The notes beneath the pieces were generated by a model, which was not told the origin of the DNA, made no database searches, and worked only from the letters and a program-made list of their open reading frames with translations. From Desulfobia sp. (lineage in GTDB: Bacteria > Desulfobacterota > Desulfobulbia > Desulfobulbales > SURF-16): a stretch of 35,015 bases of DNA. Positions 6,618 through 15,075 of the stretch are shown here, one piece after another. The DNA lies in NCBI GenBank assembly GCA_041641775.1, contig JBEPXR010000005.1:1-35015 (forward strand). The letters run 5' to 3'. The position numbers were made by a program, and so were the translations under genes. How positions within the stretch are numbered: position 1 is the first letter of the stretch; every line of letters starts with the position of its first letter.

Positions 6618-7508
6618 TCAGCTGTGGCTTTTTCCCGCAGCACTCTTAAAACCGGCCACCAGATCGAGAAGTTCGCTGGTAATCACTGACTGGCGCAACT
6701 GCCGGTAGTCGCCCCGCAATTCTTCGAGATGTTCTTTTATGTTTTTCTCCGCCTGCTGCAGGGACTGCAGACGGCTGGCCTGTTCACTGGCCAGCGACTG
6801 GGCCTGGGCCCTGAAAATGGCGACAAACAGAAACTGCCGGATGAGATTGCTGACCATCCTGTCGGCGTCTTCGGCAAAATATGGTAAACAGCGGCTGGGC
6901 CAGGGACGTTCGGTCAACTCCTGCAATTTCCGGTGGCCGAGGGGGAAGAGGGGAAGATGCCGGGGTTGGGCCGTGCTGCCGGTCTGTTCATGGTAGTTGA
7001 AGAGCAGGTCGATTTTATCCCTTCCCCCACTTTCGCGCCAGGAGGAGATCTCCAGGACTATTTCCATGATGTGGCGGTTTATTCCTTCGATGGAGCCGGG
7101 GGACCAGAAGCTTTTTATGATGTTATAGCCTTCGCTTTGCAGACGGTTTCGGATTCTGGCCCCGGTAACCAGCAGGGAAACCCCCTTCTCAGGGAGGGTT
7201 TCCCCTTTTATCTTCTGGAGAAATTCCACCAGTTTTTCATTGAAACGACCGCAGAGGCCCTGGTCGGAGCCGAAAACAACCAGCAGGTGTCCTCCCTCCT
7301 GTTTTCTCACCTGCTTTCTGGTAGACTCGGCTTCATTGATTACAGCGGAAAGACCTTTCTCAATCGTTTCCAGATAGGTATCCAATGAGCCGGCCGCCTC
7401 TTCATACTGATGGATATTGACCGCAGCCATAGTTTTCATGGTCTTGACAATGGACTGGAGTCCGGTTGCGGTACTGATTTTTTTTTCCAGTTGATGTAAG
7501 TTGGCCAT
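6618..7508 (-). CDS. atpG: N-type F-ATPase gamma subunit
   Basis: The N-terminus is MANLHQLEKKISTATGLQSIVKTMKTMAAV and the C-terminal coiled helix is ITSELLDLVAG. It is the last gene of the atpDCQRBEFAG-ordered operon. Confidence 0.9.
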   Translation of the reverse strand: MANLHQLEKKISTATGLQSIVKTMKTMAAVNIHQYEEAAGSLDTYLETIEKGLSAVINEAESTRKQVRKQEGGHLLVVFGSDQGLCGRFNEKLVEFLQKIKGETLPEKGVSLLVTGARIRNRLQSEGYNIIKSFWSPGSIEGINRHIMEIVLEISSWRESGGRDKIDLLFNYHEQTGSTAQPRHLPLFPLGHRKLQELTERPWPSRCLPYFAEDADRMVSNLIRQFLFVAIFRAQAQSLASEQASRLQSLQQAEKNIKEHLEELRGDYRQLRQSVITSELLDLVAGFKSAAGKSHS

Positions 7509-7521
7509 TTTTGTTGCCGGG

Positions 7522-9060
7522 CTAGTTGTCCTCTTTATTTTCCGTTTCCAGCAGGCCTGCTTCTTCTAAAGCATTGCGGCTGATGTTAATCAGCCTGTCC
7601 TGCCGATCCTCACTCAGTTCCTCGTCACCGGAGATGGATGATCTGATTTCCTCTGCCTGGCTTTCCAGAGCCTTGCGGATTTCGTTCTCGGCCTTGGCCA
7701 TATCATCAAGGTCTATCTCATCAAAAAGACCTCTGTTCAGAATCAGCATGGTAACCACCTGCTCGTAATCTTTTCTGGGATTGTAGCGATGCTGGCGCAG
7801 CAGCTCCCGGAGGCGTTTTCCCCTTTCCAGAGCCTGTCTGGTTTTTTCGTCGAGTCGGGTGGCAAACCGTGAGAAACTTTCCAGTTCCTCGAATTGGGAG
7901 TAGGACAGCTTAAGCTCGCCCACCAGGCCTTTAAACGCGGGCCTCTGCGCCTTGCCGCCCACCCGTGATACCGATCTGCCCACATCTACCGCCGGCAGCA
8001 TGCCTTTGGAAAACAGCTCGGGAGAAAGATAGATCTGGCCATCGGTTATGGAAATGAGGTTCGTGGGTATGTAGGCGGAAAGATTCTGCTCTTCTGTTTC
8101 AATGATCGGCAGGGCGGTGAGAGAGCCGCCGCCCTTGTCATTACGCAGGTGGGTGGAGCGTTCCAGAAGCCGGGAGTGGATATAGAAGATATCACCGGGG
8201 TAAGCTTCTCTGCCCGGAGGATGCTCGAGGAGCAGGGAGAGCTCCCGGTAGGCCCTGGCGTGTCTGGTCAAATCATCATAGACGATCAGAATATCCTTGC
8301 CCTCTTTCATGAAATGTTCCGCGATGGAAGTGGCGGCATAGGGCGTAATAAACTGCAGACCGGGACCTTTTTCACCTCCAGCCACCATAACGATTGTGTA
8401 TTCCATGGCGCCATTTTTCTCAAGCTCATGGATGACTCTGGCCATGGCCGATTCTCTCTGTCCTATGGCGACATAAATGCAGATGACGTCCTTGCCCTTC
8501 TGGTTGGCTATGGTGTCAAGGCCGATTGCGGTTTTGCCGGTCTGGCGGTCTCCCAGGATGAGTTCCCTCTGGCCTTTTCCCACCGGAATAAGGGTGTCAA
8601 TAACCTTGATTCCTGTTTCCAGAGGCGAGGAGACCGGAGCCCGATCCATAATGGCAGGGGCAGTTCTTTCAACTGGCAGGCGTTCGTCGGTATCCAGCGG
8701 CCCCCTGTTATCCAGTATCTCTTCGGTTGCGGTAAAGACTCGTCCAAGTAAACCCGAACCTACGCCTATATCAACGACCCTCCGCAATCTTTTTACTTCC
8801 ATGCCCGCCCGTATGCTGGTGGAATGACCGAGCAGAATCAGTCCGACACTGTCTGCTTTCAACGTCGCCACCATGGCCCGTGTGCCGTCTTCGCACTCCA
8901 CCAGTTCCTCAAAACCTATTGACCCGAGTCCGGCAGCCCAGACAATGGGGCCGGTTACGGAAGTTATATGACCGGTATCCTCCTGTTTTATTCCTGTCTG
9001 GTGCGAAGATATGGCTTTATTGAAAGCCCTTTCCTGATTTTCCCTGGTTTTTTCGAGCAT
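7522..9060 (-). CDS. atpA: N-type F-ATPase alpha subunit
   Basis: Carries Walker A GDRQTGKTAIGLDTI, plus ILIVYDDLTRHARAYRELSLLL and PGREAYPGDIFYIHSRLLER. Confidence 0.95.
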   Translation of the reverse strand: MLEKTRENQERAFNKAISSHQTGIKQEDTGHITSVTGPIVWAAGLGSIGFEELVECEDGTRAMVATLKADSVGLILLGHSTSIRAGMEVKRLRRVVDIGVGSGLLGRVFTATEEILDNRGPLDTDERLPVERTAPAIMDRAPVSSPLETGIKVIDTLIPVGKGQRELILGDRQTGKTAIGLDTIANQKGKDVICIYVAIGQRESAMARVIHELEKNGAMEYTIVMVAGGEKGPGLQFITPYAATSIAEHFMKEGKDILIVYDDLTRHARAYRELSLLLEHPPGREAYPGDIFYIHSRLLERSTHLRNDKGGGSLTALPIIETEEQNLSAYIPTNLISITDGQIYLSPELFSKGMLPAVDVGRSVSRVGGKAQRPAFKGLVGELKLSYSQFEELESFSRFATRLDEKTRQALERGKRLRELLRQHRYNPRKDYEQVVTMLILNRGLFDEIDLDDMAKAENEIRKALESQAEEIRSSISGDEELSEDRQDRLINISRNALEEAGLLETENKEDN

Positions 9061-9135: not shown

Positions 9136-9894
9136 TTACCGGACAGTCTTCTCCAGCTCCTTTTCGAGACGTTCCTGGAAATCGTCCAGGTAGCGCCTCA
9201 GATGCCAGCCCACTTTTCTCCCCTCAACTGTCACGGTGATTCCGGCCAGGAGGTCGGGATTGGTCTCGAAATGCACTTCCACCCCTCTGCCGCACAATTT
9301 TTCGAGATGTTCGCTTACCTGCTCCTGCAGGGCAGGGGATAAATCCCTGCTGCTGTCAACCTGGAGATCATCGAGTTCTTTCTCCTTTAATGAACTGAGA
9401 ACCTTCTTGTCCGGATCGGTGCTGGTCTTCTCCAGGAACAGCCTGACCATCTTCTCTTCAAAATCATGATCCGCAAGTTCCCGGAAGGCATTCCGGCTGA
9501 GTCTCCCGAATTCTTCGGCAATAGTCCGGCTGGTGTGCACGAGAAACTGTTCCTTTTCTTTCTCGAGTTCCCGCTGCCACTTGTGACGGGCCTGTTCTTC
9601 TTCGCTTCGGACTTCTGCGGTCAGACGCTGCCGCAGTTCTTCAGCTTCCCTGCTGGCCTCCTCCAGCTTTTGGCGGGCTTCCTGGTCCGCCTTCTTCTGA
9701 AGAGACTGATAGCGTTTTTTTTCTTCTTCAGCCGCTTCTCTCTCTTTTCCGGCCTCCTCAAGCCTTTCGTTTACCTTCTCCTGTCTTTTGTGCATTGCCC
9801 TTAATACCGGGGCATAGAGAAATTTTTTCAGGAGCCAGATCAGTATGAAGAGATTAAGGATCTGGACGGCTGCGGTAAACAGGTCGACACTCAT
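9136..9894 (-). CDS. atpF: N-type F-ATPase b subunit (long form)
   Basis: It has a single N-terminal TM helix (LFTAAVQILNLFILIWLL) followed by a long, highly charged coiled coil. It shares an ATGA overlap with atpE. At 252 aa it is longer than a classical b subunit, and no delta gene is present. Confidence 0.8.
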   Translation of the reverse strand: MSVDLFTAAVQILNLFILIWLLKKFLYAPVLRAMHKRQEKVNERLEEAGKEREAAEEEKKRYQSLQKKADQEARQKLEEASREAEELRQRLTAEVRSEEEQARHKWQRELEKEKEQFLVHTSRTIAEEFGRLSRNAFRELADHDFEEKMVRLFLEKTSTDPDKKVLSSLKEKELDDLQVDSSRDLSPALQEQVSEHLEKLCGRGVEVHFETNPDLLAGITVTVEGRKVGWHLRRYLDDFQERLEKELEKTVR

Positions 9895-10169
9895 CCGCCG
9901 CTTGCCTTTACCGCGTGATTCCAGATGGGATTGGCAAAGATCAGGATCATGGCGATGACAAAAGCGTATATGGAGGTCGATTCGATCATGGCCATGGAGA
10001 CAAACATTGTTCTGGTAAAGGTGCTGGTCTGATCCGGCTGTTGGGCCATGGAGCGCAGGGCAGCGGCAGCGGCCATTCCCTCCCCGATTGCGGCGCCGAT
10101 GGCGCCGAAGCCGATGGCCAGGCCGGCCCCGAGGACTGAGCCGAAGCCGATAATATCAAGAGACGTCAT
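9891..10169 (-). CDS. atpE: N-type F-ATPase c subunit (rotor ring proteolipid)
   Basis: Two-helix hairpin with the loop RSMAQQPD. Helix 2 carries IESTSIY and helix 1 carries IGEG. Confidence 0.9.
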   Translation of the reverse strand: MTSLDIIGFGSVLGAGLAIGFGAIGAAIGEGMAAAAALRSMAQQPDQTSTFTRTMFVSMAMIESTSIYAFVIAMILIFANPIWNHAVKASGG

Positions 10170-10870
10170 GATGATCCTCCTTGAATAGAGTTATTGGTTT
10201 CATCTTCCGTTTTTTTCATGGCTGTAGCAATATAAACTGCTGCCAGCAGGGCAAAGATGTAAGCCTGTATTACTCCGGTGAGGAGTCCCAGGAGCTGCAT
10301 GATCACAGGGATGACCAGAGGGACGATAACCATGAGGACAAGTATGATCACCGTTGAACTCATGACGTTGCCATAAAGCCGCACGGCGAGCGCGAAGGTC
10401 CTGGTGACATCACCGAGAATATTAAAAGGCAGCATAAACGGAGTGGGCCGTATGTACTGTTTGAGATAACTGGCCAGAGACTGGCTTCGGAGACCGTAAA
10501 CCGGAACGGCCACGAAGACGACGAGCGCATAGGCAGCCGTCGTTGAAAGCGAACCGGTTGGCGGCTGAAAGAAGGGAAGGATGCTCAAGATGTTGGAGAC
10601 GAGGATAAAAAGAAAAAAAGTGCCGATAAGAGGAAGGAAAGGCCGCGGATCTCGATGGGTTACCTCTTCGATATGGTCGTTTATACCCTTGACGATCACT
10701 TCCAGGAAATTCTGCCAGCTGGAAATATCCGTTGTACTGCTTAATCGCCGGCTGATAAGCCAGGACCCTCCCACCAGCAGGGCCATGATCAACCAGGTGA
10801 AAATCAGAGTGGCATTTATTTCTCCCCAACCCCACTCCAGGTAGACGTATTGATCGGGAGAATACTTCAT
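10166..10870 (-). CDS. atpB: N-type F-ATPase a subunit
   Basis: Polytopic membrane protein with the conserved stator arginine in LAVRLYGNVMS. ATGA overlaps occur at both ends. Confidence 0.9.
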   Translation of the reverse strand: MKYSPDQYVYLEWGWGEINATLIFTWLIMALLVGGSWLISRRLSSTTDISSWQNFLEVIVKGINDHIEEVTHRDPRPFLPLIGTFFLFILVSNILSILPFFQPPTGSLSTTAAYALVVFVAVPVYGLRSQSLASYLKQYIRPTPFMLPFNILGDVTRTFALAVRLYGNVMSSTVIILVLMVIVPLVIPVIMQLLGLLTGVIQAYIFALLAAVYIATAMKKTEDETNNSIQGGSS

Positions 10871-11139
10871 GGCTTGATCTCCTTTTTCATTTTTCGCAGC
10901 CAGAAAAAGCGGCTCACCGTAAAACCTGCAGCCAGCAGAAGAAGGCGCTGCCAGTCATGGTCGGCCAGAAGATAAAGAGCTGCGATCAGGATTGAGACCC
11001 GGAACAGAAAGCTTGAGATCAGCCACCCCATTCTGTTATCTTTAGTGCTAACCCTCCAGAGAGTGAGATAAAGTCCGCTGAAGTAGAAAAAACCCAGGGT
11101 GGCCCCACTAAACAGCATCAGCGGTGCAGTGATAATCAT
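10867..11139 (-). CDS. atpR: N-ATPase accessory membrane protein AtpR
   Basis: The listed ORF (to 11304) is trimmed to ATG 11139, which overlaps the atpQ stop (ATGA). The 90 aa product has about 3 TM helices (MIITAPLMLFSGATLGFFYF...). Position and size match AtpR of N-ATPase operons. Confidence 0.75.
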   Translation of the reverse strand: MIITAPLMLFSGATLGFFYFSGLYLTLWRVSTKDNRMGWLISSFLFRVSILIAALYLLADHDWQRLLLLAAGFTVSRFFWLRKMKKEIKP

Positions 11140-11432
11140 GACTCTTCCCTCCCATGTTTGGTTATCCAGTGCCAGGCCACCAGGCAGCCTATCGCCAGAC
11201 CCACGATGAGACCGGTTATGGTCCAGGATGTCTCGCTTCTGTGCAGGGTGTCGAGCCACCTTCCCAGCAGAGTGCCCAGAACCGTGGGGATGGCCACGCT
11301 CCATCCCACCGTACCGAAAAGGCCCAGACCGAAAAAAAACGATTCCTGCTTGTGCTCTTCAGCTTCAAGCCTCTTTCTGCATTTTTCCTCGATAATTTCA
11401 GGCAGTTTTTCCTTTTTTTTCGGATCAGGCAT
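11136..11432 (-). CDS. atpQ: N-ATPase accessory membrane protein AtpQ (AtpZ/AtpI-like)
   Basis: 98 aa, with a Lys-rich N-terminus and then two TM helices (FFFGLGLFGTVGWSVAIPTVLGTLLGRWLD). It occupies the atpQ position between atpC and atpR. Confidence 0.75.
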   Translation of the reverse strand: MPDPKKKEKLPEIIEEKCRKRLEAEEHKQESFFFGLGLFGTVGWSVAIPTVLGTLLGRWLDTLHRSETSWTITGLIVGLAIGCLVAWHWITKHGREES

Positions 11433-11482: not shown

Positions 11483-13725
<2,243 letters not shown>

Positions 13726-13729
<4 letters not shown>

Positions 13730-14937
13730 TTTTTGATCTCACCTGCCCGGGTTAAGGCGAATTTTGCCCCCAGTGGACCGATAAATTCGAAGATAATGGA
13801 ACTTGCTGAAATAATGGTCAGGACCTGGCTGCCGATCAGTTCGGTCCCTCCCGTAAGCTCGGCCAGCTCCTGTTTTGCCAGGAGGGCGAGACCTATAGCG
13901 ACCCCGGCCTGGGAGAGGATACCGAAGCCGAGATATTTGTTTATCTTTTCATCCATGCCTCCGAGTGTTCCGCCAAGCAAGGCTCCCCCTGTGAGGCCTC
14001 CGGTTCGGCTTACGACATAGATGATTCCCACCATTCCTATGGCCGGCAGGGTGGCAACATCCAGATGGAGTCCGGCCAGTCCGAAAAAAAGGATGAAAAT
14101 GAGCTCCATGATATTCTGGAGCGGCTTGCGAACTTCTTTGACCAGATAGTCTTTATTGGTGTTGACCAGAATAAATCCTGTCATCATGCAGGTGAGAATA
14201 AGGGAAAGATGCCAGCGTTCGGCAAGACCCGTCCCCAGGAAAACGGCCATGAAGATGGCGATAATTATGTCTTGATCACGGTCCAGCCAGTGGATCAGCA
14301 GCGTAAAAAAAGCACCGATGACTCCCCCTAACAGGAGACTGGAAAGTACTTCCTTGAAAGGGTGCCAGAGTGCGCTGATCTGGAAAGCGGGACCGGCTGC
14401 TTCGCCCGGGGTAAGCAGTATCTTGACACTGAAAAGGGTCAAACTGAAGATAATCACCGCTAGCCCGTCATCAAAACCCACCACTGCATAAAGGGTTTTG
14501 GTGAGTTTGCCTTTGGCCCGGTATTCCTGAATGACGGCCACGGTGCCAGCCGGGGCGCTGGCTGGCGCCAGACCGCCGAGGAGAAGGGCGAGAGCCAGAT
14601 TATGACTAACCAGATATACCGCGGCTGCCACGAGGAGAAATGTCATCAGGCATTCAGTTATTATCAGAAATACGATCCCTGAACCAAGCCTTCCCAGGGA
14701 AGAAAGTTTCAGCTCTGAACCAATAATAAAGGCTATAAATCCCAGAGAGAGCGTGGTCACGAAGGAGAGATTGTCTGTCAGCTCTCCTGGAAATAGATCG
14801 AGAAAGCTGGGACCTAGCAGGACACCTGCCGTCAGGTAGCCGATAAGGGCAGGCAGGTTCAGGAGTCGGGCCAGCCTGCCGCAGAAATAGCCGGTAGTAA
14901 TGAGGAGGGCGACAGCGGTTATTGCGGAAAAATTCAT
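13726..14937 (-). CDS. CPA2-family monovalent cation:proton antiporter (Kef/NapA-like membrane domain, no KTN domain)
   Basis: The N-terminus is typical of the Na_H exchanger family: GRLARLLNLPALIGYLTAGVLLGPSFLDL. About 12 TM segments. I prefer ATG 14937 (MNFSAITAV...). The listed ORF extends to 14994 and the start is uncertain. Confidence 0.8.
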
Positions 14938-15075
14938 ATAGCCCGTTACTTGTTTGCTGTTGGTGGTCCATGGCTGCGTCAGCCGCCAGACCATAACAAA
15001 TACATTGGAATCTCAACTTCCATCTTATAAAATGTGATAAATGCAGTATAGAGGAAATTTAAAGGATGTGGCGAT

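Follow-up and report, generated by a model that had tools for sequence, protein, structure and literature searches.

A two-carboxylate, Na+-type ion site in the c subunit of an N-ATPase operon from Desulfobia sp.

The window analyzed here is a stretch of 35,015 nucleotides (positions 1 to 35,015 of contig JBEPXR010000005.1, assembly GCA_041641775.1) from Desulfobia sp., and its source genome is a MAG of 369 contigs that is 83.6% complete. It contains a run of eleven genes, all on the minus strand, in the order CPA2, CBS, beta, epsilon, AtpQ, AtpR, a, c, b, alpha and gamma. Seven of the ten junctions in this run are overlaps of 4 or 8 nt. Trehalose genes and the CPA2 antiporter flank the ATPase operon. 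The genes of the run, together with the ribosome-binding site of the c subunit gene, are listed below.

13726..14994, minus strand: CPA2-type cation/H+ antiporter (PF00999, E=1.5e-26)
13265..13729, minus strand: CBS-pair protein (PF00571)
11869..13272, minus strand: atpD(N), beta subunit, 467 aa (alt_F1F0_F1_bet is the best NCBIfam model at 714.5, its cut-off of 752 not being reached)
11483..11872, minus strand: atpC(N), epsilon subunit, 129 aa (PF02823; TIGR03166 at 114.3, above the cut-off of 100.1)
11136..11432, minus strand: atpQ ("gene 1"), 98 aa (PF09527, E=2.8e-16; TIGR02230 at 96.9, above the cut-off of 46.7)
10867..11139, minus strand: atpR, N-ATPase-specific small membrane subunit, 90 aa (PF12966, E=4.1e-19; TIGR03165 at 56.9, above the cut-off of 55.5)
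10166..10870, minus strand: atpB(N), a subunit, 234 aa, with the stator Arg164 in LAVRLYGN (PF00119, E=1.4e-43; TIGR03306 altF1_A at 312.4, above the cut-off of 302.1)
10176..10182, minus strand: Shine-Dalgarno sequence AAGGAGG, 6 nt 5' of the c subunit start and within the 3' end of atpB
9891..10169, minus strand: atpE(N), N-ATPase c subunit, a two-helix hairpin of 92 aa plus stop codon
9136..9894, minus strand: atpF(N), long b subunit, 252 aa (PF00430 over residues 8-119, PF00213 OSCP over 171-243; TIGR03321 is the best NCBIfam match)
7522..9060, minus strand: atpA(N), alpha subunit, 512 aa (alt_F1F0_F1_al best, 727.2)
6618..7508, minus strand: atpG(N), gamma subunit, 296 aa (alt_F1F0_F1_gam best, 277.7)

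The traits that define N-ATPases are the operon order, the presence of atpR, the lack of a delta gene, a delta-like tail on the b subunit, and occurrence always as a second enzyme (PMC2881411). The order found here, atpD-atpC-atpQ-atpR-atpB-atpE-atpF-atpA-atpG, is that of N-ATPase operons. Neither the ORF map nor the Pfam searches revealed a separate delta (OSCP) gene in the operon, and the C-terminus of the b subunit is a delta/OSCP-like segment. "Alternate F1F0" NCBIfam models ranked top for a, b, alpha, beta and gamma; for c and epsilon, another NCBIfam model scored just above the "alternate F1F0" one. The a and epsilon subunits passed the "alternate" cut-offs, as AtpQ and AtpR did those of their family-specific models, and c, b, alpha, beta and gamma fell slightly under the NCBIfam "exception" cut-offs. 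Because of the gene order, the presence of both AtpR and AtpQ, the lack of a delta gene, the OSCP-tailed b subunit and the NCBIfam models, we assign these genes as a complete N-ATPase operon, with the c subunit belonging to an N-type rotary ATPase. The beta subunit has intact Walker A, GER, Walker B and DNIFRF motifs. For atpC(N) we set the start at the ATG overlapping the stop codon of beta. The AtpR product carries Arg residues within its hydrophobic segments, and its 90-aa gene call is also present on another assembly.

Among species-representative genomes we examined the 80 beta loci nearest to that of the window; they come from over a dozen phyla (60-71% identity), and all have the gene order seen here wherever the contig is long enough. 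In a control search of 14 named genomes, AtpR gave a match in M. acetivorans only. Among 30 relatives of the source genome AtpR was present in 13, including both same-genus genomes, and three genera were split, one of their two genomes having it and the other not. Such patchiness is expected of a mobile accessory operon and fits a history of gain and loss. The GC content is flat over the window (0.44-0.56) and carries no island signature. In a maximum-likelihood beta tree the terminal branch of the window beta subunit had a length of 1.61 compared with a median of 0.38, and the lineage is a divergent member of the N-ATPases. The closest beta relative in the genome collection is from a Desulfurivibrionaceae MAG, at 71% identity.

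CPA2, CBS and atpD are linked by overlaps of 4 and 8 nt and are translationally coupled. The antiporter sequence includes VVGFDDGLAV, with a DD pair of the kind found in electrogenic antiporters of the NhaA/NapA type. Sixty other N-ATPase loci had 3 kb or more of sequence upstream, and none of them has a CPA2-CBS pair beside atpD. In one Methylococcales MAG, whose beta subunit falls with that of the window on the tree, there is a homologous pair 8.8 kb upstream. We considered this neighbor as a clue to the coupling ion and rejected it, as it fits Na+ or H+ equally.

The ATG of atpE(N) overlaps the atpB stop codon as ATGA, and an identical 92-aa gene call is present on a separate public assembly. 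We regard the start codon as supported because the Shine-Dalgarno sequence, the ATGA overlap and the independent gene call agree. The product matched Pfam PF00137 (ATP-synt_C) at E=2.5e-19. Among the NCBIfam models, PRK13468 scored 120.4 and passed its cut-off of 116; alt_F1F0_F0_C (TIGR03322) was a close second at 117.2, under its cut-off of 130.85. Helix 1 reads GAIGAAIGEGMAAAA and helix 2 reads SMAMIESTSIYAFV. An AF2 model, built from an input alignment of 27 homologues, gave a hairpin with helices at residues 3-42 and 48-79 and a mean pLDDT of 83.9. Foldseek searches with this hairpin returned c-ring chains alone, with non-significant E-values of 0.04 or above. Such E-values are expected for a helical hairpin of 92 aa. 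The Foldseek result adds nothing to the sequence alignment of the c subunit.

The helices contain the strings AAIGEGMAAA (helix 1) and AMIESTSIYAF (helix 2), and the residues of the ion site are Glu30, Met61, Glu63, Ser64, Thr65 and Tyr68. The codons of the two motifs are as follows.

10080..10082, minus strand: Glu30 codon, second carboxylate in helix 1, equivalent to E32 of F. nucleatum and Q32 of I. tartaricus (HMMER alignment to 3zk1)
9966..9983, minus strand: Glu63-Ser64-Thr65-Ser66-Ile67-Tyr68 codons, the ESTxxY motif of helix 2 (sequence and HMMER alignment)

A first-pass annotation of this DNA, made by eye, had placed a Glu at the helix-1 Gln position and reported the helix-2 Glu-Ser-Thr and the downstream Tyr as present. 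Alignment to the structurally characterized c-rings, which it had proposed as a check, bore out both statements. A phmmer search against all PDB chains matched the F. nucleatum chain 3zk1 at E=2.3e-15, pairing query residues 6-83 with residues 9-85 through a single one-residue gap that lies N-terminal to the site. The paired residues are E30 and E32, M61 and V63, E63 and E65, S64 and S66, T65 and T67, and Y68 and Y70, and the spacing between the two glutamates is 33 residues in both proteins. The c15 ring of Spirulina (2wie) and the chloroplast c subunits aligned without any gap, with E30 on their helix-1 Gln. Glu30 therefore falls on the binding site, not off it. The Na+-site pattern is complete, with the helix-2 Glu, Ser at +1, Thr at +2, Tyr at +5 and the helix-1 Glu at -33. 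The pattern of the H+-selective N-ring, with a hydrophobic residue at +2 and no Ser at +1, is not matched, the window having S64-T65.

Na+ binding by the F. nucleatum ring was established by X-ray crystallography and biochemistry (PMC3692424). In 3ZK1 the Na+ ligands are Glu32 O-epsilon, Val63 O, Glu65 O-epsilon, Ser66 O-gamma and one water, which is itself bound via Thr67 O-gamma and Ala64 O; Glu65 is hydrogen-bonded from Tyr70 and Ser66, and Glu32 stays protonated throughout, leaving Na+ as the sole ion moved (PMC3692424). The ligand set of the window c subunit is identical, with the carbonyl oxygen of M61 in place of that of V63, and the identity over the hairpin is 42%. The two proteins differ in their context: the F. 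nucleatum ring belongs to a canonical F-type synthase, has 11 subunits (c11; 3ZK1/3ZK2), an ARQPE loop and a GxGxGxGxG helix-1 pattern, whereas the window c subunit is N-type, with an AQQPD loop, the pattern AxGxAxGxG and a helix 1 that is one residue longer in its N-terminal part. The AQQPD loop is invariant among N-type c subunits, and F-type c subunits have ARQPE. In the one-carboxylate c11 ring of I. tartaricus (1YCE; phmmer E=3e-13), E65, S66, T67, Y70 and the V63 carbonyl are conserved, but the helix-1 ligand is Gln32 instead of Glu30.

Two-carboxylate sites had also been described in the first-pass annotation as known from Na+-binding rings and from N-ATPase rings, and there are published examples of each, the F. 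nucleatum ring (PMC3692424) and the c17 ring of B. pseudomallei (PMC5376962). The same annotation cited the latter as coupled to H+ rather than Na+, in agreement with the original report of predominant H+ selectivity by NCD-4 labelling (PMC5376962). Labelling of that ring was abolished at pH 9, and Na+, Li+ and Cs+ slowed it partly and non-specifically (PMC5376962). The B. pseudomallei enzyme is likewise an N-ATPase and shares with the window Glu30 in helix 1, the helix-2 Glu, the Tyr at +5 and an a-subunit Arg at position 164. Its site consists of Glu30, Glu61, Thr62, Met63 and Tyr66 (PMC5376962). It thus has E61-T62-M63 where the window has E63-S64-T65, and its helix-1 pattern is AxGxAxAxG in contrast to AxGxAxGxG here.

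The H+-selective N-ring of B. pseudomallei is often quoted as a ground for distrusting the motif. Judged from its residues, it is an incomplete site and not a counter-example to the full motif, because its water-holding Thr is missing and the Ser ligand is replaced by Thr. Absence of even a single Na+ ligand goes together with lost Na+ specificity (PMC2881411), and the H+ selectivity of B. pseudomallei agrees with this rule. The first-pass annotation held that ion specificity cannot be read off the motif. This stands in so far as the coupling ion is provable by biochemistry alone; the argument drawn from B. pseudomallei does not stand, as that ring reads E-T-M..Y. The motif is more informative on the ion than that annotation allowed, because the ligand set of the window equals that of the Na+-binding F. 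nucleatum ring.

The six-position pattern E-M-E-S-T-Y was present in all of the 120 closest database homologues (58-98% identical), and because of this invariance we do not regard the motif as a chance occurrence. The pattern was also found in the same-genus, same-family and same-order relatives examined, which fall in the Thr class. To this we added a survey of c subunits from 72 N-ATPase operons across phyla, the window included. E...M-E-S-T...Y was present in 52 of the 72, the Thr position was I, V, M or L in 18 (about a quarter) and Ser in one, and one further operon reads ELESTY. Position 30 was Glu in 66 and Gln in 5 of the 71 operons other than the window, and all five Gln30 c subunits also lacked Thr65. 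On the maximum-likelihood beta tree, position 65 changed between Thr and a hydrophobic residue at least 10 times when well-supported branches only were counted. Position 65 is thus a labile switch in the N-ATPase family, a lability that was remarked on qualitatively in 2010 (PMC2881411), and the window c subunit falls, by its residues, in the Thr class. From the names of the taxa alone, we have the impression that the Thr65 class is commoner in marine-named taxa and the hydrophobic class in soil- or freshwater-named ones; Cocleimonas and Methylophagaceae are exceptions.

The residue next to the Thr is less usual. Position 66 is Ala in 104/120 close homologues and 69/71 family representatives, and Ser in the window. 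Other rare c-subunit residues in the window lineage are Ala26 (elsewhere Pro or Ser), Phe51, Met55 and Ile82. We consider all five to be fixed and not errors, because they are common to the same-genus genome L090.

The source genome also encodes other rotary ATPases. A canonical Fo (AtpI-like, a and c subunits), distinct from the N-type enzyme, lies on contig C246 (1-2446), and a V/A-type ATPase cluster (I-K-E) lies on contig C11 (756-3179). With the canonical a and c and the V/A-type I, K and E in the same genome, the N-ATPase trait of always being a second enzyme is found here as well. In the canonical c subunit, GQ...IETFTIY, a Phe occupies the Thr (+2) position, and by the same ligand rule this subunit is of the H+ type.

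Most likely, in our view, Na+ binds to the ring and the enzyme uses ATP to export it from the cell, a reading that we hold with reasonable though far from complete confidence. The c hairpins would assemble into a ring with an ion site at each subunit interface. Glu63 would be the carboxylate for the transported ion, with Ser64 O-gamma and the Met61 backbone carbonyl as further ligands. Glu30, we infer, is probably permanently protonated, giving a hydrogen bond to Glu63 and one oxygen to the ion. Thr65 would hold the coordinating water and Tyr68 would lock Glu63, as in the solved Na+-bound c11 ring of F. nucleatum. Powered by ATP hydrolysis in the head (alpha3-beta3), gamma-epsilon and the c-ring would rotate past the a-subunit Arg164 and expel Na+, and the canonical H+-type F-ATPase of the genome would make ATP. 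A large ring is plausible by analogy, because AxGxAxGxG lies between the GxGxGxGxG of the c11 ring and the AxGxAxAxG of the c17 ring. N-ATPases with the full ligand set were predicted to be Na+ exporters (PMC2881411). The N-ATPase of a halotolerant cyanobacterium, Aphanothece halophytica, is reported to have raised salt tolerance and to have coupled Na+ to both ATP hydrolysis and synthesis. Several points count against a Na+ exporter. They include the rare substitutions beside the site (Ser66, Ala26), the long beta branch and the sub-cut-off NCBIfam scores. Further, by our own thermodynamic reasoning, a ring of at least 17 subunits would have a high ion/ATP ratio, limiting the gradient that the pump could build.

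The ring could instead be coupled to H+, which we think improbable. The enzyme would then be an ATP-driven proton pump, and the CPA2 antiporter would turn the H+ gradient into extrusion of Na+ (or K+). The co-transcribed antiporter fits a H+ pump equally well, and a H+ pump and a cation/H+ antiporter joined in one operon by overlaps of 4 and 8 nt would form a coherent module. The only N-type ring characterized in isolation, the c17 ring of B. pseudomallei, is predominantly H+ selective despite its two carboxylates (PMC5376962), yet it lacks the Ser and Thr ligands (T62-M63), both of which the window retains. Na+-type rings can also translocate H+ when Na+ is scarce (PMC2881411). On the other hand, the F. 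nucleatum ring, with the same full ligand set, binds Na+ (PMC3692424). Coupling to H+ would moreover leave unexplained why Ser and Thr are invariant in 120/120 close homologues when roughly one N-ATPase in four has I, V, M or L instead of the Thr and the position has switched at least 10 times.

It is likewise unlikely, as we see it, that the ring binds Na+ in an enzyme that serves chiefly as a stand-by ATP synthase, working at low sodium-motive force through a very large ring. In vesicles, the cyanobacterial N-ATPase is reported to have both made and hydrolyzed ATP with coupling to Na+, a 2026 preprint argues for about 20 c subunits and possibly two stators, tuning the enzyme to about 50 mV, and the helix-1 Gly/Ala pattern of the window resembles that of the c17 ring. 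Against a synthase role, N-ATPases are always second enzymes, and M. acetivorans grew and made ATP as before when its N-ATPase operon was deleted (PMC2881411). The Desulfobia genome already has F-type and V/A-type enzymes, and the osmoprotectant genes and antiporter nearby suggest salt stress, not energy conservation. A last possibility departs furthest from known systems, and we give it very little credence: that Ser66, whose hydroxyl would lie one turn from Glu63, and Ala26 retune the ion affinity or the ring size, and that this fast-evolving N-ATPase and the CPA2 antiporter translationally coupled to it make up a dedicated ATP-driven Na+/H+ circuit whose properties differ from those of characterized N- or F-type rings.

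How to read the stress locus around the gene, with its trehalose genes, antiporter and N-ATPase, depends on the coupling ion. If the enzyme exports Na+, as we favor, the locus would be a salt-defense module. More generally, sequence-based ion calls for N-ATPases with a full E...ESTxxY remain reasonable, because the sole published H+-selective N-ring lacks the Ser/Thr ligands. The combination of a helix-1 Glu with ESTxxY occurs in about 1% of PF00137 members, mostly N-ATPases (PMC2881411), and the window has the helix-1 Glu and the ESTxxY motif that Dibrova, Galperin & Mulkidjanian described for N-ATPase c subunits in 2010 (PMC2881411), as well as the AQQPD loop of the family. The two-carboxylate E...ESTxxY site of this N-ATPase c subunit is the one they described, and is real but ordinary; beyond the point on B. 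pseudomallei, the window adds one more example of it. It differs from N-ATPases generally in its long beta branch, its genus-specific c residues and the CPA2 and CBS genes added upstream.

Of the other rotary ATPases in the genome, the K subunit of the V/A-type cluster is a 150-aa double hairpin with a Gln in hairpin 1 (PSSQTIY) and a single Glu in hairpin 2 (IVEGFAVF). The canonical c subunit has a signal-like N-terminal extension of roughly 30 residues. At the end of contig C246, after the c gene, the first 74 residues of the same a subunit recur, and an identical canonical c gene opens contig C89 (2-292), followed by unrelated genes. The arrangement on these two contigs reflects either a tandem duplication of a and c that the assembler collapsed or an artefact of the assembly.
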